Assembly (NCBI GenBank): GCA_943789465.1
Contig: CALSUF010000002.1
Location: forward strand, 631,952 to 695,951
From: an uncultured Flavobacteriaceae bacterium
Lineage (GTDB): Bacteria; Bacteroidota; Bacteroidia; Flavobacteriales; Flavobacteriaceae
Direction of reading: 5' to 3'
Length of the DNA stretch: 64,000 nucleotides
Every line of letters starts with the position of its first letter. Position 1 is the stretch's first letter. Positions 5,901 to 62,031 of the stretch are shown here, piece by piece. Position numbers and translations under genes: made by a program. The notes below the pieces were generated by a model. That model worked only from the letters and a program-made list of their open reading frames with translations. It was not told the DNA's origin and did no database searches.

Positions 5901-7528
5901 TTTTGAGTAATCGTAATAACAGCACCTGGGTTTGTAGTAGTCGCATCTTGAAATGTAATATTTGTGAATGAAATTGTTTTGCCTGCGGTATTTATAACAT
6001 ACATTCTAGCACTCGCACCTGTAATCGTTGCATCAGATTGCCCAACAAAAGAAATCGATTTTCCTATTCCAACTTGACCTGTTTGGTTGATAGCTCCTAC
6101 GATAGTAATGATATCCCCATCTGAAGCAGCTACAACAGCATTGTTTACAGTTGTAAAAGCATTCTCTTCAGTCAAACCGCCATTGTTGTTTCCTCCAACT
6201 TTAACAAAATAAGTGTTTTGAGCAAAAGTGTCTACGACATTAACTGTTCTTGTCACTTCAACGGCTGCATTGCTAGAAGAATCCGAAACATTGTAAGTCA
6301 CGGTGTAGCTTGCAACAACATCTGTATCTACAGTATTTACTGTAATTATATTGTTAGTAATATCGCCATCAATATTATCACTCGCAGTTGCTCCTGCATC
6401 TGTATAAGATGTTCCAACCTCCACTGTTACTGAGGGTTCGCCTTCTAGAGTAATGACTGGGATTATTGTGTCTGAAAAATTAAGCCCAGAATTCCAAGAA
6501 CCTGCATCCTCGCCATCCGAACCAAAATCAATTGGACTTTCTGTTCCTACAGCAACGGCATCATATATTACGTTCCCTGTTGTTGAATCAAAACTTAGAT
6601 TGGAAGCTGTTAAATCCGCAGCGACTATTGAAGTTGCAAAAGAATCGTCTGCAGCAAGGTTTGGTGTAATTTTTTTAGTTAACGAATTAATTAAATTTAA
6701 TTCAACATTAGCAATAACTCCTAAATCGGAGGGTACATCAGTTGTACCATTGGTTACAAAATTTCCATAAATTAAAGAGTTTTGGATTGTAAAAGGTCTT
6801 GTCCCTTCTATTTTAACACCCCCTCCTTTGGATGGGTCCTGTGTGTTATTAACTTGATTATTAAAGATGGTAGTATTTGTAATACTACTTAGGTTGTTAT
6901 TACCGGCTAAGTATAGTGCTCCACCATCAATACCCGTTGCCGTATTATTTACAAAAGTAGATCCTGTAACAATTAATTGTCTTCCAACAGATGTTACAGC
7001 GACTGCACCACCTCTATTGGCGCTATTTCCATCAAATAATGAATTGGTAATTGTTATAACTCCAGTACCCCCTGCTAAAATAGTACCACCATTAACAGTC
7101 GAAGTATTATTTTTTAAAATACAACCCGTTAATGTTAAATCTGAGTTTTGAGTAATCGTAATAACAGCACCTGGGTTTGTAGTAGTCGCATCTTGAAATG
7201 TAATATTTGTGAATGAAATTGTTTTGCCTGCGGTATTTATAACATACATTCTAGCACTCGCACCTGTAATCGTTGCATTAGATTGCCCAACAAAAGAAAT
7301 CGATTTTCCTATTCCAACTTGACCTGTTTGATTGATAGCTCCTACGATAGTAATGATATCCCCATCTGAAGCAGCTACAACAGCATTGTTTACAGTTGTA
7401 AAAGCATTCTCTTCAGTCAAACCGCCATTGTTGTTTCCTCCAACTTTAACGAAATAAATGTTTTGAGCTAATAAATTTAAACTAAAGAAAATAGTTAGCA
7501 ATAGTGTGGTTAGTGTAGTTTTATTCAT
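2990..7528 (-). CDS. Giant T9SS-secreted surface/adhesin-like protein (1512 aa): duplicated beta-helix (PbH1-like) module, 9 DUF5011/Ig-like domains and a Por (T9SS type A) C-terminal sorting domain
   Basis: ORF track. Signal peptide MNKTTLTTLLLTIFFSLNLLAQ. Repeated motifs GGALYLAGNNN and GGGVKIEG are typical of parallel beta-helix repeats. The 83-aa unit PVITLTGTAIVTIEVGTAYVDGGATATDNYDDD...SYTVSYNVSDASGNAATEVTRTVNVVD matches the DUF5011 pattern (P.I.L.G...v..G..Y.D.GA.A.D..D.D......YTVTY.V.D.AGN.A....R.V.V). The C-terminal about 80 aa (KLYIKGLNNYYLKVYNRLGQ...GIYLIEVSDGVKSSTKRFVKY) is a Por secretion tail. Confidence 0.85.
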   Translation of the reverse strand: MNKTTLTTLLLTIFFSLNLLAQNIYFVKVGGNNNGGLTEENAFTTVNNAVVAASDGDIITIVGAINQTGQVGIGKSISFVGQSNATITGASARMYVINTAGKTISFTNITFQDATTTNPGAVITITQNSDLTLTGCILKNNTSTVNGGTILAGGTGVITITNSLFDGNSANRGGAVAVTSVGRQLIVTGSTFVNNTATGIDGGALYLAGNNNLSSITNTTIFNNQVNNTQDPSKGGGVKIEGTRPFTIQNSLIYGNFVTNGTTDVPSDLGVIANVELNLINSLTKKITPNLAADDSFATSIVAADLTASNLSFDSTTGNVIYDAVAVGTESPIDFGSDGEDAGSWNSGLNFSDTIIPVITLEGEPSVTVEVGTSYTDAGATASDNIDGDITNNIITVNTVDTDVVASYTVTYNVSDSSSNAAVEVTRTVNVVDTFAQNTYFVKVGGNNNGGLTEENAFTTVNNAVVAASDGDIITIVGAINQTGQVGIGKSISFVGQSDATITGASARMYVINTAGKTISFTNITFQDATTTNPGAVITITQNSDLTLTGCILKNNTSTVNGGTILAGGTGVITITNSLFDGNSANRGGAVAVTSVGRQLIVTGSTFVNNTATGIDGGALYLAGNNNLSSITNTTIFNNQVNNTQDPSKGGGVKIEGTRPFTIQNSLIYGNFVTNGTTDVPSDLGVIANVELNLINSLTKKITPNLAADDSFATSIVAADLTASNLSFDSTTGNVIYDAVAVGTESPIDFGSDGEDAGSWNSGLNFSDTIIPVITLEGEPSVTVEVGTSYTDAGATASDNIDGDITSNIITVNTVDTTIVASYTVTYNVSDASGNAATEVTRTVNVVDTTIPVITLTGTAIVTIEVGTAYVDGGATATDNYDDDTALTASIVTDVSTVDTTIVASYNVTYNVSDASGNAAVEVTRTVNVVDTTIPVITLTGTAIVTIEVGTAYVDGGATATDNYDDDTTLTASIVTDVSTLDTQTVGSYTVTYNVSDASGNAATEVTRTVNVVDTTIPVITLTGTAIVTIEVGTAYVDGGATATDNYDDDTTLTASIVTDVSTVDTQTVGSYTVSYNVSDASGNAATEVTRTVNVVDTTIPVITLTGTAIVTIEVGTAYVDGGATATDNYDDDTTLTASIVTDVSTVDTQTVGSYTVSYNVSDASGNAATEVTRTVNVVDTTIPVITLTGTAIVTIEVGTAYVDGGATATDNYDDDTTLTASIVTDVSTVDTQTVGSYTVSYNVSDASGNAATEVTRTVNVVDTTIPVITLTGTAIVTIEVGTTYVDGGATATDNYDDDTTLTASIVTDVSTVDTQTVGSYTVSYNVSDASGNAATEVTRTVNVVDTTIPVITLEGEPSVTVEVGTAYVDGGATATDNYDDDTTLTASIVTDVSTVDTQTVGSYTVTYNVSDASGNAATEVTRTVIVEDSSLSSIDGDNETLKFIMYPNPTSDKLYIKGLNNYYLKVYNRLGQIILKANNTHAIDVSSLSVGIYLIEVSDGVKSSTKRFVKY
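3242..4984. repeat. Tandem array of 7 near-identical 249-bp units, each encoding one 83-aa DUF5011-like domain, inside the 2990..7528 gene
   Basis: 249-bp periodicity is visible directly in the DNA (for example ...catcacttacgttataagaaacagtataagaaccaacagtctgagtatctactgtactaacatcagtcacgatactcgcggttaatgttgtatcatcatcatagttatcagtagctgtagcaccaccatctacgta... recurs). The encoded repeats differ by only 0-3 residues. Confidence 0.8.
4979..7468. repeat. Direct duplication of 2 x 1245 bp (415-aa beta-helix + DUF5011 block) inside the 2990..7528 gene
   Basis: Protein residues about 21-435 and 436-850 are near-identical. The antisense shadow ORFs 5106..5525 / 6453..6770 and 5622..5906 / 6867..7151 are identical at an offset of exactly 1245 bp. 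Confidence 0.8.
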
Positions 7529-9304: not shown

Positions 9305-10411
9305 ATGAAAAAACTATTTTCACTTGTAGCATTAATCATCGGATTTACAGTTAGTGCTCAAATAACTACCAGTAGCACAAATAATAGTGGACCCTCTGCA
9401 TCTGCGATTGGGCTGCAAACGACAGCAAGTGGAGTTGCTTCTACATCAATCGGGCGTCAGACATTAGCAAGTGGAGACTACTCCACTGCATTGGGTTATT
9501 TAACATCAGCATCTGGGGGTAGTTCTATCTCCATGGGACGTTCTACATCTGCAAGTGAATTATATGCAACCGCAATGGGACATGAGACAACAGCAGGTGG
9601 AAATTCTTCTACAGCAACAGGATATAAAACAACGGCAAGTGGAGCTGCCTCTACAGCAATGGGGCTAGAGACAACAGCAGGCGGCGATAATTCGATTGCT
9701 ATGGGTTATCTCACATCAGCATCTGGAGGTAGTTCTATAGCAATGGGACGTTCTACATCTGCGAGTGAGTTGTACGCAACCGCAATGGGACATGAGACAA
9801 CAGCAAGTGGAAATTCTTCAACAGCAACAGGATATCAAACAACAGCAAGTGGATCTGCCTCTACAGTAATGGGAAAAGGTACTATAGCTAGTGATTATGG
9901 TTCTCTTGTGATTGGTACATACAATTTAAGCGGTTCAACGGTTACTGTTGACGCAACACTACCCAATATTGGAAATACTGCTTTTGTGATCGGAAATGGC
10001 ACTAATGCTGTAAAATCTGATGCCTTTAAAGTAATGTACAATGGAAACGCTACTGTTGGTAATGACTTAACAGTAAGTGGTGATGTTGTGGTTTCATCAG
10101 ATGCAAGACTTAAAGCAAATATTGTATCTCTAGGTTCTACTCTATCAAGACTATTACTTATTGATGGGAAGCGTTACACAATGAAAAAAGACGGCAAACA
10201 AAAAATTGGCGTATTGGCTCAAGACATACAAAAAGTATTTCCAAAACTTGTTACAACTGATGACAAAGACATGTTAGCGGTAAACTATCAAGGACTTGTT
10301 CCTGTGCTAATTAATGCGCTTAAAGAACAACAATCAGAAATAGACACTTATAGAGAAGAAGTATCTGAATTAAAGAAAATGGTTAATCAACTTATTACCA
10401 AACAAAAATAA
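9305..10411 (+). CDS. Secreted tail-fiber-like protein: Ser/Thr/Gly-rich repeat region plus a C-terminal peptidase S74 (endosialidase/tail-spike intramolecular chaperone) domain
   Basis: Signal peptide MKKLFSLVALIIGFTVSAQ. About 14-residue repeats (T.ASG..STA.G). The C-terminus DARLKANIVSLGSTLSRLLLIDGKRYTMKK...GVLAQDIQKVFPKLVTTDDKDMLAVNYQGLVPVLINALKEQ matches the S74 chaperone-domain pattern (SD.RLK.NI..L...L..l..l.pv.Y.....G..AQ....fPelV........vdY..L.p.li.AiKEq), followed by a coiled-coil tail. Confidence 0.8.
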   Translation: MKKLFSLVALIIGFTVSAQITTSSTNNSGPSASAIGLQTTASGVASTSIGRQTLASGDYSTALGYLTSASGGSSISMGRSTSASELYATAMGHETTAGGNSSTATGYKTTASGAASTAMGLETTAGGDNSIAMGYLTSASGGSSIAMGRSTSASELYATAMGHETTASGNSSTATGYQTTASGSASTVMGKGTIASDYGSLVIGTYNLSGSTVTVDATLPNIGNTAFVIGNGTNAVKSDAFKVMYNGNATVGNDLTVSGDVVVSSDARLKANIVSLGSTLSRLLLIDGKRYTMKKDGKQKIGVLAQDIQKVFPKLVTTDDKDMLAVNYQGLVPVLINALKEQQSEIDTYREEVSELKKMVNQLITKQK

Positions 10412-10424
10412 CATCACAATAAAT

Positions 10425-11303
10425 ATGAAAAAATCACTTACACTTTTAGCATTAACTATGGCATGTAGTATGAATGCACAAATACAAATTTATCAAACAA
10501 ATATTAGCGGATCAACAACTTCTTCAGCAATTGGAAGTTATACAAAAGCAACTGCTACTGGTGCATTTGCATCAGGGAAAGACACAGAAGCAACTGGAGA
10601 GTATTCTCAAGCATTGGGATATAAAGCAAAAGCACATGGAAATAAGTCTTTTGCAATAGGAGATCTCACCACAGCAAACGGAGTTAACTCTACAGCTATG
10701 GGATATTGGACAGAAGCAAATGGAGATTATTCTACATCAACGGGAGAATTTTCAGATGCAAATGGAAAAACTTCTACAGCAATGGGATATGGTTCATATG
10801 CAAGTGATGCTTTTTCTTTGGTAATTGGTCATAACAATTTAAGTGGATCAACGGTAACCGGTAGTGCAACTGAATTTAATTCAGCAAATACTGCTTTTGT
10901 AATTGGAAATGGTAGTTGGCCTTGGGATAGATCAGATGCTTTTAAAGTAATGTCTAACGGAGATACTACAGTTAGTAATGACCTAACTGTAAATGGTGAT
11001 ATCGTTGTTTCTTCAGATGCACGACTTAAAGCAAATATTGTATCGCTAGGCTCTACGCTTGCCAAACTACTGCTAATTGATGGAAAGACCTACACAATGA
11101 AAAAAAACGGTAAACAAAAAATAGGCGTATTGGCTCAAGATATTCAAAAAGTATTTCCAGAACTAGTTACAACAGACGATAAAGACATGTTGGCGGTAAA
11201 TTATCAAGGGCTTGTACCCGTGCTTATTAATGCACTTAAAGAACAAGACGATAAGATTTCAAGATTAGAAAAATTAGTAGAAAAATTAATTTCTAATAAA
11301 TAA
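10425..11303 (+). CDS. Secreted tail-fiber-like protein with C-terminal peptidase S74 chaperone domain (paralog of 9305..10411)
   Basis: Signal peptide MKKSLTLLALTMACSMNAQ. The C-terminal 100 aa are nearly identical to the upstream paralog (DARLKANIVSLGSTLAKLLLIDGKTYTMKKNGKQKIGVLAQDIQKVFPELVTTDDKDMLAVNYQGLVPVLINALKEQ). There is a 13-nt gap to the upstream gene. Confidence 0.8.
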   Translation: MKKSLTLLALTMACSMNAQIQIYQTNISGSTTSSAIGSYTKATATGAFASGKDTEATGEYSQALGYKAKAHGNKSFAIGDLTTANGVNSTAMGYWTEANGDYSTSTGEFSDANGKTSTAMGYGSYASDAFSLVIGHNNLSGSTVTGSATEFNSANTAFVIGNGSWPWDRSDAFKVMSNGDTTVSNDLTVNGDIVVSSDARLKANIVSLGSTLAKLLLIDGKTYTMKKNGKQKIGVLAQDIQKVFPELVTTDDKDMLAVNYQGLVPVLINALKEQDDKISRLEKLVEKLISNK

Positions 11304-11309
11304 AAAACT

Positions 11310-12875
11310 ATGAGAAAGTTAATACTATTAACAACTCTTGTATCTTTCACATTACAAGCACAAAATATTACAGTTGCATCAGGCAAAAGTTTTACAATTG
11401 ATAAAACAGGTTCTGTGACCATGAGTGGAAATTTCTCAAACTCTGGAACCTTTTCATTAAACTCAGATTCTGACGAGTTTTCATCCATTATAATTGGCGG
11501 TTCTGTTACTGGAAATATTACCTATAATCGGTATGTAAATTCAGTAGGTACAGATAAGTGGGATTTAATAGGGTCTCCAGTAAGCGGGCAATCTATTAAC
11601 TCATTTGTTACTGTAAACTCCTCAACTTTAGCCACTAATGGTTCTACTTATGCGATAGGGTTTTATAACAATTCAAACAATACTTGGACAAACTTAACTA
11701 GTGCTGATTTAGGGGGAGAAATTATCTTTCCTGTGGGTACGGGCTTTCAAATGGGGACCATTGCTAATGGAACTGGGATACTTTCTTTTACAGGAAGTCC
11801 AGCTGCTACAAATCAAACACAGGAAATTATTAATAATGATGCTGCAAATTCAGGATTAGGAACAAGATGGAATTTAGTAGCAAACCCTTTCCCTTCTTAC
11901 ATCCAAGGAAATGCCAATGCGCATGTTACTAATAACTTTTTAACAATAAATAGTGATAAGCTTGACGATGCTTATGAAGCCATTTATGGCTATGATGCAG
12001 ATGGAACAGGATATACAATTTATAATAATAGTAGTGGTGCATTACTTCTTGCTCCTGGGCAAGGATTTATGATCGCATCGGATAATACTAACTCTGAAAC
12101 TATTAATAATATTTCGTTTACAACAGACATGAGAACTATTGTGGGGGGAGATGATTTCATTACAAGTAGTAGAGCCATGCAAGACTCTTATGAACTAATT
12201 CTTAAACTTTATGAAGGTGATACAGAAATAGATCAAACAAAATTCTATTTTGAAGATGGGCTTAATCTAGGTTTAGACCCGGGCTATGACGCTGGTCATT
12301 TTAACCAACAAGCATCTTTAATGTCACGGTTAGTAGAAGAAGATCAAGGAATCGGGTTTGCTATCAATTCAATGGGACTTGAGAGTATTAATGATGTCAT
12401 AATACCTCTTGAAATTAATAGAGAATCTGGAAACGGATTCAGAATAAGCATACACATCAATGGTATTTATGAAGGTACAAACATATATTTAGAAGATAGT
12501 CAAGAGGGAACCATGACTCTTTTAAATGAAGAAGACTTTGAGTTAATTCCAGAAATAAATTTAAGCGAAGTAGGTAGATTTTTTATTCATTTAACTCAAA
12601 CTACTTTTTCTATTGAAAATGAAACGCAAACCAATCATTTAAATGTATATAAGTTAGATGCAAATAACTTTATTACTGTAGAAGGATTAGCTTATCTATC
12701 AAATCAGACCAACCTTCGATTATATAATATTCTTGGTGAAGAATTATTATCTATCTCTTTAGCAAATAACACAAACACACAAACAATTTCTACACAGGAG
12801 TTGACCACAGGTATTTATATTATTAAATTAAAATCAGGGAGTAATGTAATTACTAAAAAACTTATCATAAAGTAA
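11310..12875 (+). CDS. T9SS-secreted protein of unknown function (Por C-terminal sorting domain)
   Basis: Signal peptide MRKLILLTTLVSFTLQAQ. The C-terminus LRLYNILGEELLSISLANNTNTQTISTQELTTGIYIIKLKSGSNVITKKLIIK is a T9SS type A tail. 6-nt gap to the upstream gene. Confidence 0.75.
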   Translation: MRKLILLTTLVSFTLQAQNITVASGKSFTIDKTGSVTMSGNFSNSGTFSLNSDSDEFSSIIIGGSVTGNITYNRYVNSVGTDKWDLIGSPVSGQSINSFVTVNSSTLATNGSTYAIGFYNNSNNTWTNLTSADLGGEIIFPVGTGFQMGTIANGTGILSFTGSPAATNQTQEIINNDAANSGLGTRWNLVANPFPSYIQGNANAHVTNNFLTINSDKLDDAYEAIYGYDADGTGYTIYNNSSGALLLAPGQGFMIASDNTNSETINNISFTTDMRTIVGGDDFITSSRAMQDSYELILKLYEGDTEIDQTKFYFEDGLNLGLDPGYDAGHFNQQASLMSRLVEEDQGIGFAINSMGLESINDVIIPLEINRESGNGFRISIHINGIYEGTNIYLEDSQEGTMTLLNEEDFELIPEINLSEVGRFFIHLTQTTFSIENETQTNHLNVYKLDANNFITVEGLAYLSNQTNLRLYNILGEELLSISLANNTNTQTISTQELTTGIYIIKLKSGSNVITKKLIIK

Positions 12876-12883
12876 TATTGAAT

Positions 12884-13087
12884 ATGGAAAAAAAGGCCGC
12901 TACTAAAAAAGAAACAGCTCCTTCTGGAATTACTAGAAAGGAAGCAATAAAGAAAATGGGGAAATATGCAGCACTTAGTGCTTTGGGTACTTTTGTAATA
13001 CTAAATCCAAAAGCGGCACAAGCTCAGTCTGTAGGTTTAGATAGCTCGGGGGATAATCCACCAGACCCTGATGGATGGGGAGATTAG
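12884..13087 (+). CDS. Small peptide (about 67 aa): putative modified-peptide precursor or small exported peptide (K-rich N-terminus, hydrophobic helix, AQAQS, then Asp/Pro/Gly-rich tail ending GWGD)
   Basis: The ORF track calls 12878 (TTG); the first ATG is at about 12884 (MEKKAATKKETAPSGITRKEAIKKMGKYAALSALGTFVILNPKAAQAQSVGLDSSGDNPPDPDGWGD). It starts 2-8 nt after the upstream stop and is immediately followed by the nucleotidyltransferase and HprK-like genes. Note: my hand indexing near 13080 disagreed with the ORF track by 1 nt. Confidence 0.45.
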   Translation: MEKKAATKKETAPSGITRKEAIKKMGKYAALSALGTFVILNPKAAQAQSVGLDSSGDNPPDPDGWGD

Positions 13088-13121
13088 TAGTCAATAACTT
13101 AAAAAAAAATATGTTAAGTAA

Positions 13122-14129
13122 ATGGTTTGTGTTGAAGAAAAACTTTTAGTTAATATCCTTTACCGAGCAGAAAGTGAAGTCTTAAAAGATATAGACATAA
13201 GCCATCTCAACTTTGAAAAGTTAATAAAAATAGCCAGTGCCCATTTAATGCTACCCGCTCTTTTTTTTAATATTCATAAAAAGAATTTATCTTACTTATT
13301 TCCTGAGGATTTTGTAGACTATACAAAAAACATCTACTCTATTAACAAAGCCAGAAATGAGGTGTTAATTTCTGAGGCAAAAGAGCTCTCACAACTACTA
13401 CATAAAAATAATATTAATCATATTTTTCTTAAAGGATCTGCACTTATACTATCTGATGTTTTTGAAGATATTGGAGAGAGAATGATTGGTGATATAGACT
13501 TTATTGTGCAAGATAAGGATAAAGAAAAAATTAAAAACTTGTTATATAATAAAAACTATTACGGTTTATTTCCTGATAGTTTATTTACATTTTTTAAACC
13601 GAGACACTTTCCTAGAATCGTGCAAAAAAACAAAACCATCGCTATAGAGCCGCACACAGAATTATTATCTCCAGGATATAGATGTGTTATTAATTCAAAA
13701 GAGCTGATTAATGATTTTAAAGATGAAGCTAAATCTATTAAAACACCAAGTAAATCCTTTTTGTTTGATCATTGTATATATAATTTACAAATAAACGATA
13801 GAGGATTATATAACTCAAATTACAGTCATCGAAGTATTTACGATATTTTTAAGATAAACTGCAAAAATAGGTTGGACATAAAAAACATTAAAAAAGATAT
13901 ATATACTAAACACTATTTTTTAACCATAAATAAGTTTGAAATATTTGACATAAATATTACATCTACTTTGTTGAATTCATATTTTGACAAATTAATTATG
14001 GTAGGTAGAAATATTTTAAGAAAAATCTATATCCGATCAATACAAATATTTGAACTCTTTGTAAACTATAATTACAGAAAATATGCTTTAAATAAAATTA
14101 TTAATTTCTCTAATAAAAAAACCTCTTAA
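13122..14129 (+). CDS. Nucleotidyltransferase family protein (pol-beta superfamily; PF14907-like uncharacterised nucleotidyltransferase)
   Basis: hG[GS]...11-13 aa...[DE]h[DE]h signature (FLKGSALILSDVFEDIGERMIGDIDFIV) plus a downstream AIEPHTELL motif, as in PF14907 members that accompany HprK-like kinases in peptide-modification cassettes. Confidence 0.65.
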   Translation: MVCVEEKLLVNILYRAESEVLKDIDISHLNFEKLIKIASAHLMLPALFFNIHKKNLSYLFPEDFVDYTKNIYSINKARNEVLISEAKELSQLLHKNNINHIFLKGSALILSDVFEDIGERMIGDIDFIVQDKDKEKIKNLLYNKNYYGLFPDSLFTFFKPRHFPRIVQKNKTIAIEPHTELLSPGYRCVINSKELINDFKDEAKSIKTPSKSFLFDHCIYNLQINDRGLYNSNYSHRSIYDIFKINCKNRLDIKNIKKDIYTKHYFLTINKFEIFDINITSTLLNSYFDKLIMVGRNILRKIYIRSIQIFELFVNYNYRKYALNKIINFSNKKTS

Positions 14130-14142
14130 ACGATCTATTTAG

Positions 14143-15270
14143 ATGCTTAAATATATGAAGGATTCACCTTTTTCTATAACTCAAAAAATCTCTGAAGAGG
14201 ATTCTATTGTATGGTTAAAAGAATCAAATAAATATATTATTTTAAATTCTAACATATTAGAGTTAATTAAAAAAAAATCAGCTTTTTCTTCAAAAGAATT
14301 CTTAACGCTTATAACTGAATCTTTAAATGTTGGTGTTCGTGTAGCGAAAAGAATAAATAAAGAGATCTCAGAGTTCATATTAGAGACAAAACAGGCTGAG
14401 TTAAAATCCAATACAAAAGATCCAATCATAGTAAAATCATGTGAAATAATTCAATATTATACGTTCAATGACAAGGCTATCAAAATATGCTTTGATTCTA
14501 TAGAAACAAAATCATTAATTCACCAAAAACACAATCATCTAGCTAAAGAAAATATGAATACCTATGATGTTCAATATAAGATTTTTAATACTAAGGGTAA
14601 ACTGTATATTTTCAAGAACAATCAAATTGTTGGTAGTTGGAATAAAAGTACTCAACTAAACGAGTTTCAAGGGAAATTCTCTATGGAAATTCTCTGTTCA
14701 TTTTACAATAAAAAAGAACACGATTGGATGGGAGTATTTCACGCATCTACAATTTCCAAGAATAATCATTCAATTATGTTTACAGGCGACTCTGGAAACG
14801 GCAAAAGTACAGCTGTATCCATATTAATGGCTAATGGCTTTAATGTAATTGCAGACGATTTTACGCCGATATTAAGATCAGATTTTAAAACGTACTGCTT
14901 ACCGACAGCTATTTCTATAAAAGAAAAATCATTCCATTTAATTGAGCAGTTACATATAAATCTTATAAATTCTAATGAATACTATATAAGCGAACAAAAA
15001 GGTAATGTTAAATATCTTCCACCAATATCAAAAGAAACTAGTGCTAATTGCAGCACTGTGGTTTGGGTTAAATTCTCTGAAGGTACAGAAAGCACAATGA
15101 AAAAAATTAGTTCACAAAATGCTTTAAAAAAATTCTTACCTGATACTTGGATCTCAAATAAAGAAGTTAATGCAAAAGCTTTTTTAAAATGGATAAAAAA
15201 AATAAACTTTTATGAACTAAATTATTCCGACAATAATAAATTAATCTCTATAATTAATAGTTATTTTTAG
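14143..15270 (+). CDS. HPr kinase/phosphorylase-related kinase (HprK C-terminal-like P-loop domain; HprK-related kinase A type)
   Basis: MGVFHASTISKNNHSIMFTGDSGNGKSTAVSILMANGFNVIADDFTPI matches the HprK C-domain pattern (HA..v..dg.gvLi.G.SG.GKS..al.L...G..lvaDD). There is no N-terminal HprK regulatory domain, only a 190-aa novel N-domain. Confidence 0.7.
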   Translation: MLKYMKDSPFSITQKISEEDSIVWLKESNKYIILNSNILELIKKKSAFSSKEFLTLITESLNVGVRVAKRINKEISEFILETKQAELKSNTKDPIIVKSCEIIQYYTFNDKAIKICFDSIETKSLIHQKHNHLAKENMNTYDVQYKIFNTKGKLYIFKNNQIVGSWNKSTQLNEFQGKFSMEILCSFYNKKEHDWMGVFHASTISKNNHSIMFTGDSGNGKSTAVSILMANGFNVIADDFTPILRSDFKTYCLPTAISIKEKSFHLIEQLHINLINSNEYYISEQKGNVKYLPPISKETSANCSTVVWVKFSEGTESTMKKISSQNALKKFLPDTWISNKEVNAKAFLKWIKKINFYELNYSDNNKLISIINSYF

Positions 15271-15512
15271 ACTTAAAAAAAAAGGTTCATACTATGAAGG
15301 GTAAACACAATAAGGTTGTAATAAAATTTAATTTCCCACACATATATATATTCCTTTTTGTTTTTTATACTCTGTTAACACTTTTTAAAACCTATATCTT
15401 ATTCATCAATAATTTATTTTTTAGATAAAAATTTATAGATTTAGATAAAATTTATAAAAGAAAATATTTATCACGCTGAAATTTGTATGCTATTTTAGCG
15501 TAAAATAATTTT

Positions 15513-15842
15513 ATGAAATTGGATAACGATAAAATTGAAGAAATCATTGAATTGATAGAGTTAGTCATTAGTGAAGACACACATTTACAGAATGCACTTA
15601 ACGATTCTCATAGTACTAATTTTTATACAAAAGAGGAACTTCAAAAAACAATAGATGAAATTTCATCAAAAGAAATGAAAAAAATATTTGAACAAAAATT
15701 AAAAAACTTTGACTCTAACAGAAAAAAATATCTAATGGAAAAATATGGGAAATTTATTTTGAGCGAAAGACTTGTTAGGTCAACAATAAATTCCTCTTTT
15801 GGACTGAAAAGAAAGTATGGAGTATTTGGAAAATATTATTAA
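15513..15842 (+). CDS. Hypothetical protein (109 aa, charged/helical)
   Basis: ORF track only; no recognisable motif. Confidence 0.35.
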   Translation: MKLDNDKIEEIIELIELVISEDTHLQNALNDSHSTNFYTKEELQKTIDEISSKEMKKIFEQKLKNFDSNRKKYLMEKYGKFILSERLVRSTINSSFGLKRKYGVFGKYY

Positions 15843-15937
15843 CGATTCGTACATAACAACGACCTCTTCCTTTATCCCTCCCCCCAAATCAACCAATATA
15901 CTTAATCTATGATGTGTTATGCTTTAAGTATAGACAC

Positions 15938-17545
15938 ATGAAAAAAATTATAATTTTTTGTTTATTATTTTTTTGTAAATATTCATTTGGAGACTCAAAT
16001 TTTGTAATCCAAAAAATACATACAGATAACATATATTATAATGTTGTAATATATGAGAATGAGGCATACGTCAGTTCAAATCATGGGATATTTCTCATTG
16101 ATTCGTCAAGCGGTAAATTAGTAATGCATGATAAATCTGTAGAGGGTATAATAAATCCTGACTTGTCAAAAAATCTTGGTTTTAAAATTGAATTTATTGA
16201 TTCCCCCATCCCTCTTCCTGATTCATACATGTCAACTGTAACTGATTTTGCATACCACCGCAACTCTCTATATGTTGTAACGAAAGGAGACTTACTTGAA
16301 TACGAAAACAAACCCTATAAATTTTCTCCACACGGAAGTGTTCGTTCTATCTCTAAAAATAGTATTGGAACGTATAGCGGAGTGTATATTAATGGAAATA
16401 AACTTAAAAAAACAAACTATACCGATGGACAAATAAGAGAATTCGATAGTATTACATTTGTTTGCTACAATGGCCTCACAGTAGTCAAGGACGCTACAGA
16501 AAAAATTCTATATGATAACAGTAATTCAAAATTTAGTAGTGCTGAATATGGGAAAATTTCAGATATATTTTCAATAGGAAATTCTAATTATTTAGCTATA
16601 TCATCAATTGGTATTTACATATACGATTACAATTTAAACAGTTTTAATTTAATTTATTCTAATAAAAAAAGAATTATTCCAATAAGAAATAAGATTAACA
16701 ATCGTATTCAAAGTGGCAATGAATTCCATTTTATTGATGATGACAAATATTTTTCTGTTGACATAAATACTTTAAAAACAAGAGTTATTTATGACAACTT
16801 TGATTTTAAAATAGATGACATTTTAGAGTGCAGTATTGATGGGAATATTTTCTATGGAATTGCTGGAAATAAATCATTATTTAAATTTAAAAGATTTAAA
16901 AATGAGCTTAAGTTAATAAGCACTTATGAGATGAGTTTATCAGCACATACAATTTCGGATGTTGGAGATCTCGTTTTTTTAACTGGAAACGATGGTTTAA
17001 GTGTCTTTGTGAAATCTATTGGTAAAATGTATAATGGAATTATAATTGACGAGTTCAATAAATACGCTGTATTCAAATTTAAAAATTACATCAGTTTTGG
17101 AAGTATTCACGGAGTTTATAGCATTGAGAATGTTAATGAATATCAAAAGAGCTCATTTCTTCAAAATTTAAGTTCAAACAGCGACAGTCGCTTCAAATAT
17201 GAAGTTCTAATCATATTATTTATTTTAATTTCATTTTTAATAATTTTCAAGTCATTGAAGAACAAAAATTTGTCTAATGAAGAGCTAGTAATAGAAATTA
17301 AAAAATTTATTGTTAAAAACTTAACAACAGTCACTTTGATTACTTTACAAGACAAATTTAATTTAGATTACAATGCTATAAATAATTTACAGAAAGAATT
17401 TAGTCCTGCCAAATTCATAAAACAAGAAAGAAATAGCAAAGCAAAAGAACTGTTTTTAAAAGAGGAATCCATATCAAAAATCTCCAATAACACGGGGTAT
17501 TCTGAATCATACCTTTTGAAGAACAAATATAATTTCTTAAAATAA
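15938..17545 (+). CDS. Membrane-anchored one-component regulator: signal peptide, extracytoplasmic domain, single TM and C-terminal HTH (AraC-like half)
   Basis: Probable start at MKKIIIFCLLFF (the track ORF starts 24 nt earlier). TM segment YEVLIILFILISFLIIFKSL. C-terminal HTH ...ISKISNNTGYSESYLLKNKY. Confidence 0.55.
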   Translation: MKKIIIFCLLFFCKYSFGDSNFVIQKIHTDNIYYNVVIYENEAYVSSNHGIFLIDSSSGKLVMHDKSVEGIINPDLSKNLGFKIEFIDSPIPLPDSYMSTVTDFAYHRNSLYVVTKGDLLEYENKPYKFSPHGSVRSISKNSIGTYSGVYINGNKLKKTNYTDGQIREFDSITFVCYNGLTVVKDATEKILYDNSNSKFSSAEYGKISDIFSIGNSNYLAISSIGIYIYDYNLNSFNLIYSNKKRIIPIRNKINNRIQSGNEFHFIDDDKYFSVDINTLKTRVIYDNFDFKIDDILECSIDGNIFYGIAGNKSLFKFKRFKNELKLISTYEMSLSAHTISDVGDLVFLTGNDGLSVFVKSIGKMYNGIIIDEFNKYAVFKFKNYISFGSIHGVYSIENVNEYQKSSFLQNLSSNSDSRFKYEVLIILFILISFLIIFKSLKNKNLSNEELVIEIKKFIVKNLTTVTLITLQDKFNLDYNAINNLQKEFSPAKFIKQERNSKAKELFLKEESISKISNNTGYSESYLLKNKYNFLK

Positions 17546-17728
17546 AAAACAGATAATTAATAACTAAAATGCAATGAAAAAAATATACAATATCATAAGT
17601 GATTTTATAAATTTTTATACATGTTAAAGTTGATTTTGAGTTAAGTAAAGAACACAAATCAACTTCAATTTATTCAAAAAAGTGATAAAAAATAAATTAG
17701 GCAAGACACTAAACTAAATATTAAAAAC

Positions 17729-18520
17729 TTGATAATAAAATTATTAAAATTCGCTGTATTAGCTTTATTTACCTTACTGAGCGTTGGTCACGCAAGTGCA
17801 CAAGATAAAAACAACCCATATGCAGTTGGACTTGGAACCAATGTTATTGATCTAAGTAATCTCCCTGGAAACACTGTTAACTACAATTTTTCACAATTTT
17901 TGTCTAGAATATCTTATGAAAAATATTTGAAGAAAGGTTTCACTTTACAGCTTGCAGGAACCGTAAATAGTTTAACAAAAGACGGAATGGCGGGTAATCC
18001 AATGAAAGAAACACAATACTGGTCAGCAGATCTGAGTGTAAAATATGATTTAAACAATCTAATAGGAGAACTAAAAAATTGGTTTGACCCTTATGTGTTT
18101 TTAGGAGGAAGTTATGTGAATTTTTCTGATGCTTATGCAAGATTGGTAAATTTAGGTACAGGTTTTAATACTTGGATCACTGAAAATATTGGTTTTAATT
18201 CACAAATAAGCTACAGAAAAGGAGATTCTGAAAAAATCTCTGAGCACTGGCAACTATCATTGGGTTTGGTGTATAAATTTGGTGGTAAAGATACAGACGG
18301 AGATGGAATCAAAGATTCTGATGATTTATGTCCTAATGTTGCAGGTTCTGAATCAATGAATGGCTGTCCTGACACTGATGTAGAAATTGTTTTAAACAAA
18401 AAAGATGAATTTAATTTTAAAGCTAGCGGTAAAAATAAAAATATTAAACTTTTAATTGATGTAGTTGAAGCTGTAAATGGAACTTCCAAATGTAACAAGC
18501 ACAAAGAGTTTTTCGCATGA
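17729..18520 (+). CDS. Outer-membrane beta-barrel (OmpA-N-like) protein with thrombospondin type 3 repeats but no C-terminal OmpA peptidoglycan-binding domain
   Basis: Signal peptide ...[11 protein letters not shown]. Beta-strand-rich region ending ...[14 protein letters not shown]3 repeats [30 protein letters not shown]. The ORF stops 45 aa later, and its stop overlaps the next start (ATGA). Confidence 0.55.
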
Positions 18521-19830
18521 ATTTAAGACTAATTATTTATTCACTTCTTCTAATTACGCATAGTGTTTCGGGGCAATCTAGATTACAAAAGGTCCTCGCT
18601 CATGACACCTCCAGTATTTATGTTTTTAATAAAGAAAATATAACTATTAAGAACTTTCGAAACTCAATTTTAGATACAATACACCTTAATCCTTCTGAGA
18701 ATATCGATTTTGAGGATTTAAAAATGGTTGTTTTAAAGGGTGTGCCTCATTTAGTTTCTAAAGAAGGCGGAATGGTATGGGAAGTAGTTAAAGATTCGCT
18801 CAAAAGAATAGATAATTCTTTCAACCATAAAAACACTTCTCAGTCAGATATTTTCGTTCGTAATGACACCATCTTTAAATTTGGTGGGTATGGATATTGG
18901 GGTGTAAGAAACTTTTTTACCTACTTTTCCAAGACCACTGCAGAATGGCAGTTTTATGGAATTAACCCTCAATCTTATTTACCTAAAGGTTTAAGTCATT
19001 TTAATGCCTCCTATCACAAGAACAGCTATTATATTTCAGGTGGTGTAACAATAGACGAGCATGATGGAACCAACGAACTTTTAAATACCAACGTTTGGAA
19101 ATTCGATTTTAATACAAAATTATGGAGTGATTTAGGAACATCAAAATTTGAGTCTTACGATGTTCATAATGTTGTTGATATTGGAAATGGGCGTCAGCTC
19201 GTTTTTAGGCGCTTAAACAAAACCGATTCTTATGTTATTCGTATTATAGATTATGTTGAAAATTCCATAGAGGAGTATGACAACTCCAATCCAATCATGT
19301 CTATTGATGGAGGATTTTTCGCGCGTGATTCACTATACACTATCAAAAGTGGAAAGTTAAGTGCTGTGAATTTAAAAGATTTCACAAATGAGTCCACAGA
19401 TCAAACCTCTTTGTATTTAGATGCTAGTGTGTTATTTGAACGCCTCACACTGTTTATTGTCAGTGTTCTAATTTTGTTGTTTGGAGGCTTAGTGTTGTTA
19501 TATTGTAAAAACAGGAAACGCCCAAGACTCACTGATTCAGGTTTTTATCATAACTACATACATTATCCTCTCTCAAATCAAGAGCAAAAAGTTTTAGGCA
19601 TGTTATTGTACAGTAAAAACATTAATTCTAAATTATTATTAGAAGAGTTGAACGATTCATCATCGAGTACTTCGTATAACAATCTAAAAAAACTAGAAGT
19701 TATTGATTCTTTGAATGAAAAAATATCAAAAGTTTTTGGAACCAAAACATTTATACGATCAAAAATGAGTACAAAAGATGAGAATATACTTATCTATTTT
19801 ACCAACTATAGAAAAGAGTTTGTGCTATGA
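18517..19830 (+). CDS. Membrane-anchored regulator: Kelch-like beta-propeller extracytoplasmic domain, single TM and C-terminal LuxR-type HTH
   Basis: Signal peptide. Kelch-like motifs ([34 protein letters not shown]). TM segment [22 protein letters not shown]-terminus [27 protein letters not shown] resembles a LuxR/GerE HTH. Confidence 0.55.
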
Positions 19831-20288
19831 TCTGTTACGATGATTATTGGTGGGTGTTAAAAGTGAAAACAGGACATGAACTAAAGGCTGTTTCTGATTT
19901 GGAAAGCTTTGGGGTCCAGTCTTACACTCCTATAATCGAGGTGGTTCGTAATTGGAGCGATCGTAAGAGGAAAATTCAAACACCACTTATGCCTCGTTAT
20001 GTATTTGTAAAATTGACCCCCAATGAAGAACGCATCGTATTTGGCTGCAAAAGTGTGCTGGGGTATATGCATATTCATGGATTGAGAGCAAAGGTTTGGC
20101 CTAAAGAAATTAAAAAGTTACAGCAGTATTGCAACAACATTCATTACGCTTCGCAAACTGATCGTGGAACACATATTAAAGCTCCCGTATTGGGCGTTGA
20201 TGCAGAAGTTATTAATGTCAAAAACGGAGTTTGTTATTTAGTTTCGGATTGTGGTCGTTATAAGATACAATTCAAACTGGCAAGCTAG
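19827..20288 (+). CDS. upxY: UpxY-family transcription antiterminator (NusG paralog) heading a polysaccharide locus
   Basis: NGN-domain motif YWWVLKVKTGHELKAVSDLESFGVQSYTPIIEVV...RKIQTPLMPRYVFVKL (compare NusG WY.l.t.sg.E.kv...L). It sits immediately upstream of flippase, glycosyltransferase, Wza and Wzc genes. Confidence 0.7.
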   Translation: MICYDDYWWVLKVKTGHELKAVSDLESFGVQSYTPIIEVVRNWSDRKRKIQTPLMPRYVFVKLTPNEERIVFGCKSVLGYMHIHGLRAKVWPKEIKKLQQYCNNIHYASQTDRGTHIKAPVLGVDAEVINVKNGVCYLVSDCGRYKIQFKLAS

Positions 20289-20309
20289 TAAATGAGCTTG
20301 TTATTTATT
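20281..20309 (+). terminator. Hairpin caagct-agtaaatg-agcttg over the upxY stop codon, followed by ttatttatt (candidate attenuator/terminator in the leader of the polysaccharide operon)
   Basis: Perfect 6-bp stem and a T-rich tail. It is followed by an unusually GC-rich stretch gagtgtcatgggacaccctgcggcggagccgtg (20321..20353) containing the hairpin gtgtc-atgg-gacac. Confidence 0.3.
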
Positions 20310-20387
20310 AAAACCCTTTAGAGTGTCATGGGACACCCTGCGGCGGAGCCGTGAAAATTTTAAATCAAATATGAGAACTATTCCAAA

Positions 20388-21497
20388 ATGTTGAAGTTGG
20401 TAATTAAGAATATTTATGACCTAGGATCTAAACTTGTATTTAGGTTTAGTTCAAGTGTTTCCTTATTTATTTTCGCTTATTTAATCGATAAATTAATAGT
20501 CAATGAACACCAACAATCTTGGTATTTAGAGTTTCTTTTGATTTTCCCTGTTGTGAGTTCTATTTCTCGTTTTGGTTTGCCCCTTCAAATTTTATCTAAC
20601 AGTATTTCAAATCATAAAGAAGTAATAAATGTAATAAAATATCAAGCTATCCTCATCTTAATTTTTTCTAGTATTTATTTGACTACGTCTAACGATTATT
20701 TATTATTACTTTCAATATGTCCAATAGGTTCAATTTTATTTAATTACGGAGTTAATAAGATTAGAAAAGGAAACATTATAGGATACTTTTTTCAAAACGG
20801 AATGATTTATTTTGTAATGATAATTACATGTTTTTGTACGGATTGGTTTTTTTACAATTCAAAAACAATAGCACTGTTTATGATTACATTTTGTTTAATT
20901 TATCTTTATAAATTTAGAGATATTAAACTAAAATTGATCGATTTAAAAAATTATTTAAGTGACAGTCTCAACTCATTTACAATACCATTCATAATCTTTT
21001 TAGCATTTAAATCAGGAAATAATTTAGATGTTGGAGATTTTTTGATAGTTAAGTCCACTTCGTTAATTAGTTCTGCTCTAGGAGGCCTTCTTTTATTAGA
21101 TTTTAAAAAAATAGACAAGAAAAAGAAAACTATTGAAAAACTTGATTTTTTTACTTCTTTAAAAAAAAGATATTCTACTTTTTATGTATTCCTCGTTGTA
21201 GTTGTATCTGGGTTTATTATTTTTTCATATCACAAAAAAATATACTTATTGATTATTTTAATTTTGTTTGAAACCTTTTATTTTTTTATAGGCCAACAAA
21301 ATTTATTAAATATTTACTTTAATAACCAAAACGGGATTATCAAATCAAATTTATTGTCAATTGTTGTCACTAGTTTAGGCTTTGCAGTTTTAATGATTTT
21401 TAATTTCAAATATCATGAGATAGTTCTGTATGTCCTTGGTACAGCAAGCTTTCAATATTTTTCATATTTCAATTTAAAAAAATATCAAAACCTTTAA
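20388..21497 (+). CDS. Polytopic membrane protein of the polysaccharide locus (possible Wzx-type flippase)
   Basis: About 10-12 predicted TM helices. Call is from position in the locus; no diagnostic motif. Confidence 0.45.
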   Translation: MLKLVIKNIYDLGSKLVFRFSSSVSLFIFAYLIDKLIVNEHQQSWYLEFLLIFPVVSSISRFGLPLQILSNSISNHKEVINVIKYQAILILIFSSIYLTTSNDYLLLLSICPIGSILFNYGVNKIRKGNIIGYFFQNGMIYFVMIITCFCTDWFFYNSKTIALFMITFCLIYLYKFRDIKLKLIDLKNYLSDSLNSFTIPFIIFLAFKSGNNLDVGDFLIVKSTSLISSALGGLLLLDFKKIDKKKKTIEKLDFFTSLKKRYSTFYVFLVVVVSGFIIFSYHKKIYLLIILILFETFYFFIGQQNLLNIYFNNQNGIIKSNLLSIVVTSLGFAVLMIFNFKYHEIVLYVLGTASFQYFSYFNLKKYQNL

Positions 21498-21558
21498 ATT
21501 ACTTTTAATATTTTTAACTGGGCTGCCTATCTTTGGCTCAAAATTACCCCTCTTTGTA

Positions 21559-22488
21559 TTGTTGCTTTTGATATGTGGGCCTGATTTAAGGTATTTTCCT
21601 TTTAAAAAATATGTTGTGTTTTTTTGTATACTGATTATTCCAATGATCTTGTGCGAACTCATTATTTATCAGGAACTTTCAATGACCTCAATCTCAATAT
21701 TTTTTAGTATGATAATTGGATTTAGCATTCGGGAGGTGAAAATCAATTCAATCCTAATAATACTATCAATTTTCATAGCATTTCATCTTTTTTCATTTGT
21801 TTCTATTTTATATTATGGTTACGATTTGATACCACAATATTTATATGGAGAATCCAGACATCTTGTTGGAGTAAATACTTTAATAAAAATTAGACCTAGT
21901 GGGTTATACCCTGAACCTTCAACTTTAGCTATAAATTATATCGCTATTTCAATTATTCTTTTTCTCAGAAAGGAAAATTATAAATACAAAAATGTTCTTA
22001 TTTCATTGTCCATATTATTTTCAATTTTAACTTTTTCAGTTATTTCTATAGTCTCGGTGTTAATATTAGTAAGTAATTATAGACATTATTTTAAGTCGTT
22101 TTTTTATAAATTTATCATTGCAGGTGGGTTGTCTTATTTCTTATACAATTTTATAACATTATTTGTACTCCCAAAAATTGGACTGTACAACGATAGAGGT
22201 CTTGATAGTTATAAAAGATTTGAACTTTTTTATGTGATGTCTGAAAATATAGGTTTTAAGCCTATAAATTTTACAAAATCAGGGGTTGCTTTAGATAATG
22301 GCCCAATAACATATTTAATATTGTTCTGTGGTGTTTACGCGATACCAATGATATTTTATATACTTAAAAAGTCAAAAAACAACTTAGATGTAATTCTAAT
22401 ATTATTTACCAAAATTAGCTTAACCTACCCTTTGTTGTGGCTTATTTTAAAAAACAATGAAGGTCTTAAAGGTCGCAATAGTAACTAA
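21559..22488 (+). CDS. Polytopic membrane protein (possible Wzy-type polymerase / O-antigen ligase-like)
   Basis: Multiple TM helices with one large loop. Context only. Confidence 0.4.
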   Translation: MLLLICGPDLRYFPFKKYVVFFCILIIPMILCELIIYQELSMTSISIFFSMIIGFSIREVKINSILIILSIFIAFHLFSFVSILYYGYDLIPQYLYGESRHLVGVNTLIKIRPSGLYPEPSTLAINYIAISIILFLRKENYKYKNVLISLSILFSILTFSVISIVSVLILVSNYRHYFKSFFYKFIIAGGLSYFLYNFITLFVLPKIGLYNDRGLDSYKRFELFYVMSENIGFKPINFTKSGVALDNGPITYLILFCGVYAIPMIFYILKKSKNNLDVILILFTKISLTYPLLWLILKNNEGLKGRNSN

Positions 22489-25186: not shown

Positions 25187-25357
25187 ACACAACTAATCAT
25201 TCAATTTAAACTCAGCAAAGAAAGTCAGTGGAAAATCAAAAATAACATCTGTCACTTGTCTTTTATTATTTTAAAAGTTGTTGTTTTTAAAGCGAATCAC
25301 AACTTAAACCTCACCTAATTAACCACAAGACTTAACTAAGTAAATAAACTTTTTACA

Positions 25358-26116: not shown

Positions 26117-26122
26117 TTTAAT

Positions 26123-28462: not shown

Positions 28463-28728
28463 ATTTCTGTAGGTTCTGCTTGTTGTTCATAAACTTGTTC
28501 CTAAGAAATCAGTTCTTTTTTATTCAAATACATGTCCTTTAGTTTGTTTATGAGGTTATGTTCCGGACTAGACTTTAAATGCGCAAAAAGGGGATGATAT
28601 CTTTACTGTATTCATGTTAAAGCGTACTGAAAAGAACTTAAGCATCTTCACTTAAATTAGCATGTAATTTTATGACCCTAATATTACTAAATAGTACTGT
28701 TTAATTTTCATTTAAAAAAACTTTTTTT

Positions 28729-38775: not shown

Positions 38776-38813
38776 TGTGGTATGTTTTATTAAATTATGA
38801 TTATATATTTTTT

Positions 38814-52295: not shown

Positions 52296-52297
52296 TC

Positions 52298-53242: not shown

Positions 53243-53286
53243 TTTAAAAAAACCCTACTTTTTTTTTAAATTAATTTTTTAAATGA

Positions 53287-62007: not shown

Positions 62008-62031
62008 AACAACAATTCAAAAACAAAAACA

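Follow-up and report, generated by a model that had tools for sequence, protein, structure and literature searches.

A candidate peptide-tailoring module in a surface-protein operon of Flavobacteriia

Three closely spaced genes on the + strand were analysed in a 64,000-nt stretch of DNA from an uncultured Flavobacteriaceae bacterium (GenBank assembly GCA_943789465.1, contig CALSUF010000002.1, positions 631,952 to 695,951), hereafter called the window. They encode a small precursor-like exported peptide (12884..13087 from an ATG, 67 aa, or 12878..13087 from a TTG, 69 aa), a 335-aa nucleotidyltransferase (NTase) of Pfam family PF14907 (NTP_transf_5; 13122..14129) and a 375-aa kinase (14143..15270, stop codon 15268-15270) with a predicted RiPP recognition element (RRE) at its N-terminus, RiPP standing for a peptide ribosomally synthesized and modified post-translationally. 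We propose, with a probability of about 0.55, that this cassette is an accessory, lasso-independent peptide-tailoring module within a surface-protein operon conserved in Flavobacteriia. In silico, we observed which genes are present, how their products fold, which catalytic residues they carry, that the RRE is fused to the kinase and that the neighbourhood is conserved.

The three open reading frames (ORFs) belong to one tight co-directional run at 9305-15270 in the ORF listing of the window, along which the gaps are 13, 6, 2-8, 34 and 13 nt. A preliminary description made from the sequence had called the three genes translationally coupled. The three ORFs were found where it placed them, and they are closely spaced (34 and 13 nt) with zero overlap in this window. 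In relatives, the NTase and kinase genes overlap by ∼11-16 nt.

The RRE-kinase fusion and the nucleotidyltransferase

The kinase has 1266 homologs. An AlphaFold2 model of it, calculated on 112 diverse homologs (pLDDT 95, pTM 0.91), consists of three parts, namely residues 10-84 with three strands and three helices, a beta-rich lobe at 102-190 and a P-loop domain at 195-375. In this model the strands of the first part lie at 10-15, 20-25 and 30-35 and the helices at 36-47, 50-61 and 65-84. Residues W24, N29 and Y31, located on the beta2-beta3 hairpin, are invariant. A fold search with the full-length model returned phosphoenolpyruvate carboxykinase (PEPCK) and HprK only, which masked the RRE, and the N-terminal 92 residues were modelled separately (pLDDT 81.5). 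The ten best matches of this domain in the PDB by E-value were all RRE-bearing proteins, among them TbiB1 with bound leader (5v1u, 5v1v; TM-score 0.59-0.63), TfuB1 (6jx3), the sactipeptide enzyme CteB (5why, 5wgg) and ThcOx, and the TM-scores of the first nine were 0.54-0.63. With a sequence profile of the domain, the best PDB match was the lasso RRE TfuB1 (6jx3_B, E 9e-4). Aligned by hhalign with a stand-alone PqqD-like protein of Bacteroides fragilis, the domain kept beta3-alpha3 in register (E 3.4e-4, probability 38%), a weak but specific match. Because the fold matches, the TfuB1 profile match and the B. fragilis alignment agree, residues ∼8-85 (14164..14397, + strand) are, as judged from profiles and models, a PqqD-like winged-helix RRE, for which leader binding is predicted.

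All through the family, the kinase carries the RRE as a fused domain. The first 190 residues of the protein had been described before as a novel domain; they turned out to comprise this RRE and the beta-rich lobe of an HprK/PEPCK-like fold. Nor does the peptide take the place of a PqqD-like partner, as had been supposed, the PqqD-like domain being part of the kinase itself. In annotation, this "hypothetical protein" family can be given an RRE as its N-terminal third. A metagenome-assembled genome (MAG) of B. fragilis (locus L012, 8207-10852) encodes an unfused HprK-like kinase of 294 aa followed by a 91-aa lasso_PqqD_Bac-like protein (75.5 bits), and shows a two-gene form of the same kinase/PqqD partnership. 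The gene before that kinase codes for a protein of 490 aa that contains a ResA-like thioredoxin domain, and no lasso cyclase was noticed in the ORF list of the locus.

The rest of the kinase (residues ∼102-375; 14446..15267, + strand) has the HprK/PEPCK fold. The whole model matches ATP-dependent PEP carboxykinases (E ∼1e-7) and the HPr kinase/phosphorylase HprK/P (E 4e-5 and weaker). The segment GDSGNGKST...ADDF aligns with the P-loop and the catalytic Asp-Asp of HprK/P from L. casei, and so does H200. The P-loop reads G215-x-S217-G218-x-G220-K221-S222. Residues H200, G215, S217, G218, G220, K221, S222, D238, D239 and K260 are invariant or nearly so in the 112 homologs, which indicates that the catalytic apparatus is intact. 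The best NCBIfam model for the C-terminal half was TIGR04352 (HprK_rel_A), matched over residues 196-371 with 62 bits against a cutoff of 200; the relatives at loci L010, L098 and L099 gave 48-56 bits. The scores against Hpr_kinase_C (PF07475; E 2.8e-4, 20.9 bits, cutoff 33.3) and TIGR00679 (19.9, cutoff 240) were likewise too low, and a match to ScmC was also sub-threshold. The earlier assignment to the C-terminal P-loop domain of HPr kinase is supported by motif, fold and alignment with the L. casei enzyme, and not by the cutoffs of Hpr_kinase_C and HprK_rel_A. Taken together, sequence and model support membership of the HprK superfamily and do not back orthology to HprK/P. HprK_rel_A membership was considered and rejected, given 62 against 200 bits and no separate PqqD gene.

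The NTase matched PF14907 with 92.8 bits (E 3e-26, gathering cutoff 31.2) over model positions 3-220 of 249. It carries K104-G105-S106, GDIDF at 123-127 (D124-I-D126), E176-x-H178 and HTELL at 178-182, so that its description as a pol-beta-type NTase with an HTELL motif was confirmed. K104, G105, D124 and D126 are at least 95% conserved among 25 homologs of 29-99% identity. The protein has no predicted transmembrane (TM) segment or signal peptide. Because neither feature is present, both enzymes are cytoplasmic by prediction. The NTase gene adjoins the kinase gene in nearly all loci examined.

The peptide family and its neighbourhoods

The peptide has a Lys-rich N-terminus, a hydrophobic stretch, the sequence AQAQS and a D/P/G-rich tail with the end GWGD, just as first reported for a product of 67-69 aa. 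Residues 1-47 (12884-13024) comprise a basic n-region with ITRKEAIKKMGKY, a 13-residue hydrophobic stretch and then NPKAAQA, and the predicted mature peptide is QSVGLDSSGDNPPDPDGWGD (13025-13084). By inspection and hydropathy, the layout is that of a signal peptide, with a K/R-rich part at 1-27, the 13-residue hydrophobic stretch at 28-42 and NPKAAQA followed by Q. TM prediction showed this stretch to be moderately hydrophobic and below the length of a membrane anchor. The c-region is basic, and its AQA end is usually followed by Gln. Other secreted proteins of the operon carry the same A|Q junction, which agrees with the "Q-rule" of Bacteroidetes. Overall, the N-terminal part looks like a cleavable, "Sec/Tat-like" signal peptide. 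A reading as a Tat leader proper was downgraded, since the T-R-K-x-A-I-K-K layout is Tat-like, yet only one Arg is invariant and the second position varies (K, S, E or L).

At least 578 homologs of the peptide were found by protein homology search, so the 69-aa ORF is conserved in relatives, as the idea of the preliminary description required. None of the Pfam and NCBIfam families matched it. In alignments, the N-terminal part of the family is near-invariant, (A)PSGITRK[DE]AIKKMGKYAA[LF][ST]AxGTFxILNPKKAQAxS. The middle is an S/P/G/D linker of 0 to ∼40 residues whose length varies in frame, and the C-terminus is a conserved PPxPxGW with 0-2 further residues. Predicted mature peptides are 9-40 residues long and rich in Pro, Gly, Asp and Ser, and many have just 9-10 residues. 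Among 45 distinct versions of the N-terminal part, differences numbered 534 at the third codon position against 160 and 88 at the other two, a count biased by the choice of sequences by protein motif. On the 578 homologs, the third-position divergence, the in-frame length change and the conserved place 3′ of a type IX secretion system (T9SS) gene, the sequences indicate that the small ORF is a real and conserved gene; a spurious ORF is excluded.

One hydroxyl residue of the tail stands out. Ser at +2 after AxA (codon 13028-13030) is conserved in nearly all family members, and it is the sole hydroxyl residue after AxA at two loci that have both enzymes, those of Tenacibaculum litoreum (L010, ASPENPGNGF) and L090 (QSVPPAPPGW).

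The gene immediately upstream of the peptide gene encodes a T9SS-secreted protein with a type A C-terminal sorting domain (CTD; 11310..12875, + strand; Por_Secre_tail E 2.3e-9, TIGR04183 E 1.5e-10). Neighbourhoods seen from the peptide were surveyed in 80 metagenome loci, which were informative when they had enough upstream DNA (61 loci) or at least 2.5 kb downstream (28 loci). In 56 of the 61, the gene immediately upstream of the peptide gene codes for a T9SS-CTD homolog. Kinase and/or NTase genes occur no more than 2.5 kb downstream in 12 of the 28 (both in 7, kinase alone in 4, NTase alone in 1), and the remaining 16 have neither. The peptides at enzyme-less loci are indistinguishable from the rest. 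At several of these loci (L054, L057, L064 and L073, with L059 and L071 compared) a 36-codon NTase stub directly follows an intact peptide gene. Comparison of L071 (4101-10003) with L059 (2601-8938) revealed a clean deletion of ∼1.4 kb that removes the NTase gene, the kinase gene being already a remnant in L059. As read from these alignments, the deletion scars indicate repeated loss of the tailoring enzymes. Because the T9SS neighbour is constant, the enzymes are missing from 16 of 28 loci and scars mark their loss, the stable unit is the T9SS protein with the peptide, and the kinase and NTase are an accessory, repeatedly lost module rather than the heart of the system.

Neighbourhoods were also examined from the side of the kinase. 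In relatives of ∼73% identity, the order is fibre, T9SS protein, peptide, NTase, kinase, a 537-aa protein and Wza/Wzc. A locus search with a 15-sequence kinase alignment gave 10 loci among the matches listed, of which five were unrelated P-loop or HprK-like proteins. One candidate, L014 from Paracoccus, was considered as an HPr-rel-A system and dropped, as it had the look of a short alphaproteobacterial-type HprK with a 146-aa ORF. Loci L007-L011, with kinases of 31-41% identity, come from Polaribacter MAGs, an Aquaticitalea MAG, the cultured type strain T. litoreum CL-TF13 (L010) and an uncultured Bacteroidetes genome. In all five a peptide homolog lies less than 4 kb from the RRE-kinase; it is directly beside the kinase in four and ∼3 kb off in L007. 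The order is peptide-kinase, then NTase where found (3/5), and a T9SS-CTD homolog stands beside the peptide gene in every one. Homologs of the two enzymes next to each other and to a short ORF, whose absence from other genomes the first description had named as a refutation, were thus found.

For a more distant set, the kinases furthest from that of the window (∼25% identical to it) served as seed of a profile search, and seven of the resulting loci were sampled. A peptide homolog was present in five of the seven, just 3′ of a large protein, which bears a T9SS-CTD in four of those five; a T9SS homolog directly upstream of the peptide was seen in L097, L099, L101 and L103. An NTase is nearby in six of the seven, and a sulfotransferase in one (L103). 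Altogether, 10 of 12 distinct distant loci have a homolog of the peptide next to one of the RRE-kinase. The gene order varies, both peptide-NTase-kinase and peptide-kinase-NTase being found. The distant peptides keep the leader ITRKEAIxKxGKYAA, and their tails diverge completely. On these alignments a conserved leader with a hypervariable tail is the classic pattern of a RiPP precursor, and the generic features of such precursors (a short ORF beside an RRE enzyme, a conserved leader and a variable core) were all found here. The earlier suggestion of a RiPP-like cassette with the small ORF as substrate is strengthened by the fused RRE and by the distant loci, with the reservation that the enzymes are accessory.

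Two of the distant loci have additional genes. The expanded locus L097 (2168-11341) encodes a T9SS protein, a peptide homolog of 92 aa, an NTase, a DDE transposase, a kinase paralog of 367 aa, the kinase itself, another NTase and a P-loop paralog of 378 aa. In L103 (6001-9433) the RRE-kinase and NTase are followed by the sulfotransferase (PF00685), a trio as reported in lasso clusters of Firmicutes, where sulfotransferases are another tailoring gene.

Possible mechanism and alternative explanations

The pairing of an HprK-related kinase with an NTase had been thought to be known from bioinformatics only. This needs correction, as PsmK and PsmN of the pseudomycoidin cluster were characterized by genetics and mass spectrometry, and their product is a phosphoserine with one or two hexoses. 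PsmK is inactivated by D158A/D159A, and PsmN, an "uncharacterised nucleotidyltransferase", by D134A/D136A. Linear lasso precursors are phosphorylated on their C-terminal Ser by HPr-kinase homologs, as in paeninodin (PadeK), and polyphosphorylation is described for Sphingobium. Compared by description, the PsmK/PsmN pair shares with the present module an HprK-superfamily kinase with Asp-Asp (as PadeK and the Sphingobium kinases do) and an NTase with DxD; it acts through a peptide-precursor kinase and NTase-dependent addition of hexose to the phosphate, and has a PqqD-like RRE in its cluster. It differs in that its RRE is a B1 protein instead of being fused to the kinase, whereas here the context is a T9SS/fibre operon and the peptide has a signal-peptide-like leader and lacks a C-terminal Ser. 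D238-D239 of the kinase and the DxD of the NTase correspond to the residues of PsmK and PsmN whose mutants are dead, which supports the reading of the cassette as a peptide-tailoring module.

From these analogies we infer a substrate, a modified residue, a transferred group, an export route and a biological role as follows. The 47 N-terminal residues would have a double role, as a Sec/Tat-like export signal ending in AQA and as the leader recognized by the RRE. The RRE would dock the leader in the cytoplasm, and the leader stretch ITRKEAIKKMGKYAALSA is a candidate RRE ligand. The kinase domain would then use ATP to phosphorylate a hydroxyl of the variable tail. The best candidate is Ser+2, because it is conserved in nearly all members and is the only hydroxyl available in L010 and L090. 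The PF14907 NTase may add a hexose or a nucleotidyl group onto the phosphate, by analogy with PsmN and pseudomycoidin. The modified peptide would be exported through its own signal peptide, the signal would be cleaved, and a phosphopeptide or phosphoglycopeptide of 9-40 residues would be released. It may act together with the T9SS-secreted protein encoded just upstream.

Several observations weigh against this scheme. The Foldseek E-values for the RRE are weak (0.03-0.5), though the ranking is consistent. Near the distant kinase-NTase pairs of L098 and L102, no peptide homolog was found. At the 16 enzyme-less loci the peptide is followed by neither enzyme and its N-region is equally conserved, so that RRE binding alone cannot explain this conservation. 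Ser+2 is missing in L100, the most divergent peptide, and the post-signal site of L101 is ambiguous. The last residue of these peptides is W, F, D, G or N, in contrast to the C-terminal Ser targeted by the characterized lasso kinases. A bulky group two residues from the signal-peptidase site might hinder processing. The paper on pseudomycoidin leaves open whether PsmN itself transfers the hexose.

Some of the same points fit the idea that the enzymes act elsewhere, on the T9SS protein, the S74 fibres, a peptide encoded in another place, or a glycan or lipid, and that the small ORF is an ordinary exported mini-protein. The constant partner of the peptide is the T9SS protein, the peptide is unchanged where the enzymes are absent or deleted, and both here and in relatives the cluster has genes for polysaccharide export and biosynthesis beside it; the kinase-NTase pairs of L098 and L102 without a nearby peptide homolog also agree with it. 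Against these stand the RRE, a leader-binding type of domain fused to the kinase throughout the family, the adjacency of peptide and kinase in four of the five loci L007-L011, and the presence of the peptide gene in most of the most distant lineages as well, despite changes in order. The secreted proteins would moreover need to be modified before Sec export, and no shared leader-like motif was seen in them, a point on which no systematic search was made. We regard action on another substrate as unlikely, but as a serious alternative to tailoring of the small peptide.

A regulatory role of the phosphorylation is improbable on present evidence. Here a reversible mark near the signal-peptidase site would gate export or processing of the peptide, and the NTase would cap or reverse it. 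The position of the best candidate residue at +2 of the predicted cleavage site, the dispensability of the enzymes in many lineages and the fold match to the HprK superfamily are consistent with such a role. This superfamily takes in bifunctional kinase/phosphorylases, and HprK/P is regulatory. The characterized relatives that act on peptides, however, all make stable tailoring marks, and no regulator-type partner was identified.

A cryptic or split lasso cluster, with cyclase and protease encoded elsewhere in the genome, would account for the kinase and NTase, and for the sulfotransferase of L103, which are typical lasso tailoring genes; the RRE also resembles the lasso B1 proteins TbiB1 and TfuB1. 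We consider it very improbable. As the preliminary description had noted, the window offers no such machinery: no lasso cyclase, B2 protease or ABC exporter was detected among the Pfam-scanned ORFs of the 64-kb window, a set that leaves aside one large ORF (41435-46483) and four small ones (60955-63873), and the genes called in ∼20 related loci include neither an Asn-synthase-like cyclase nor a transglutaminase-like protease. A lasso precursor would be expected to have Thr at −2, an Asp/Glu ring acceptor at core position 7-9 and, in kinase-tailored members, Ser as its last residue; in the present peptides neither a conserved Thr at −2 nor a C-terminal Ser is seen. Many predicted cores, with 9-10 residues, are too short for a ring and a threaded tail, and a signal peptide is present in place of a dedicated ABC exporter. 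That the small ORF is spurious, and the kinase and NTase are chance neighbours, would fit the lack of a Pfam/NCBIfam match and the uninformative promoter and terminator scans, and has next to no probability in view of the homologs, codon divergence, in-frame length variation and post-T9SS position given above and of the adjacency of kinase and NTase.

For the tailoring module that we prefer, two more known systems offer comparison. The bioinformatically defined HPr-rel-A system (TIGR04352 with TIGR04353, PqqD_rel_X) also combines the functions of an HprK-like kinase and a PqqD-type peptide chaperone. We take an NTase to be the third part of that cassette, as in its TIGRFAMs description. It differs in that the PqqD function is fused here and a candidate substrate peptide family can be identified; no stand-alone PqqD gene, the TIGR04353 partner, was found in the window. 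Bufferins are RiPPs whose precursors bear Sec signal peptides. They resemble the present family in combining a general-secretion signal peptide with an RRE-type partner, leader and signal possibly overlapping, and are unlike it in bearing thiooxazoles made by MNIO/DUF2063 enzymes, on folded Cys-containing cores, in contrast to a kinase and NTase with a short low-complexity tail. The fold of residues ∼102-375, with the P-loop GxSGxGKS, the upstream His and ADD, is shared with HprK/P and ATP-dependent PEPCK. The kinase differs from HprK/P in falling below the Pfam and TIGRFAM cutoffs and in having no HPr or phosphotransferase system context. The N-terminal domain of HprK/P is MurE/F-like, unlike the RRE here. 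By these analogies the module probably functions like the PsmK/PsmN pair and the HPr-rel-A cassette and is a member of neither, because the TIGR04352 cutoff was failed, there is no separate PqqD gene and the lasso core enzymes are missing. No description of this peptide/RRE-kinase family was found among the papers that could be searched. What is new is the RRE-kinase fusion, the precursor family bearing a signal peptide and the strict coupling of peptide and T9SS protein in marine Flavobacteriia.

More tentatively, and with less confidence than in the module itself, the family may represent a new RiPP-like class of marine Bacteroidota, with short Pro-rich peptides whose signal peptide serves as the RRE leader. 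In the cytoplasm, the fused RRE-HprK kinase and the PF14907 transferase would attach a phosphate to them and then a sugar or nucleotidyl group, after which general secretion would export them, with T9SS proteins as partners (for which they might be a ligand, anchor or maturation factor). If so, this would be the first link of RiPP-type tailoring to T9SS surface biology. Tailoring by an HprK-type kinase with PF14907 has so far been demonstrated on lasso peptides only, and phosphorylation with glycosylation of the phosphate would become a free-standing RiPP chemistry. The family would also be the second with signal-peptide precursors after bufferins, needing no dedicated leader or exporter. It is abundant in ocean Flavobacteriaceae, as Tara, JGI and ENA data contain more than 1000 homologs of the kinase and hundreds of the peptide, and is bound up with T9SS surface proteins, which influence attachment to particles and the use of polysaccharides. 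Its presence in the cultured T. litoreum CL-TF13 makes the predictions directly testable.

Flanking genes and other features of the window

The co-directional run opens with two surface-fibre genes on the + strand. The first (9305..10411) encodes a protein with a signal peptide, a YadA_head match (E 3.6e-22) and Peptidase_S74, an intramolecular chaperone (E 2e-12); the second (10425..11303) matches YadA_head (E 1.8e-17) and Peptidase_S74 (E 9.8e-14) in Pfam. In many related loci the T9SS gene is preceded by a homolog of the first, which bears on the question, raised in the first description, whether S74 fibre genes are conserved neighbours.

Downstream of the kinase, an AT-rich gap contains a 109-aa ORF (15513-15842) whose putative product is charged and helical-looking, with family matches at chance level. 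It is followed by a gene for a 543-aa single-pass membrane protein (15914..17545, + strand; TM prediction) that has no Pfam match. This protein has an N-terminal signal, a large extracytoplasmic part and a TM segment at ∼425-450, and its C-terminal part has the look of an AraC-type helix-turn-helix (HTH), judged by eye only. Homologs occur 3′ of the cassette in L001-L006, L018, L021, L022, L027, L037 and L096, and also at the enzyme-less loci L064 and L071. PDB sequence searches with the NTase, the T9SS protein and this protein returned nothing useful. The 543-aa protein is a possible regulator of the locus. A second single-pass membrane protein of 437 aa (18517-19830) has a large, Kelch-like N-terminal extracytoplasmic part, a TM segment at ∼301-333 and a C-terminal part that is HTH-like by eye. 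In both membrane proteins this C-terminal part is short and cytoplasmic, and both may be locus regulators. A promoter and terminator scan, ill-suited to Bacteroidota promoters, gave results at chance level.

The G+C content is 25.6-29.7% over 12001-18000, which includes the peptide, NTase, kinase and regulator genes, compared with 33-38% for the left flank and the fibre genes. The drop may be due to a different origin or just to local AT-richness. A NusG/UpxY-like antiterminator (19827-20288) heads a polysaccharide locus at 19827-29835, which contains GT1, an epimerase, a Wza-like Poly_export protein, a Wzc-like GNVR/AAA protein and a GT4 family protein. The cassette is followed more directly by Wza/Wzc in relatives than in the window.

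Further surface proteins are encoded on both sides of the run. A 1512-aa T9SS cargo protein on the − strand (2990-7528) has nine Bact_surface_Ig-like repeats and HYR domains. Three proteins with collagen triple-helix repeats (36844-40355, 40357-41055 and 47607-49664), one with pentapeptide repeats and one with an Lcl C-terminal domain, adjoin a small T9SS-CTD protein, and form an unusual group of collagen-like bacterial surface proteins. On the − strand at 49992-53802, an extracytoplasmic function sigma factor, a FecR-like anti-sigma factor and a FecR_C/STN/Plug outer-membrane protein have the look of a trans-envelope signalling cluster.

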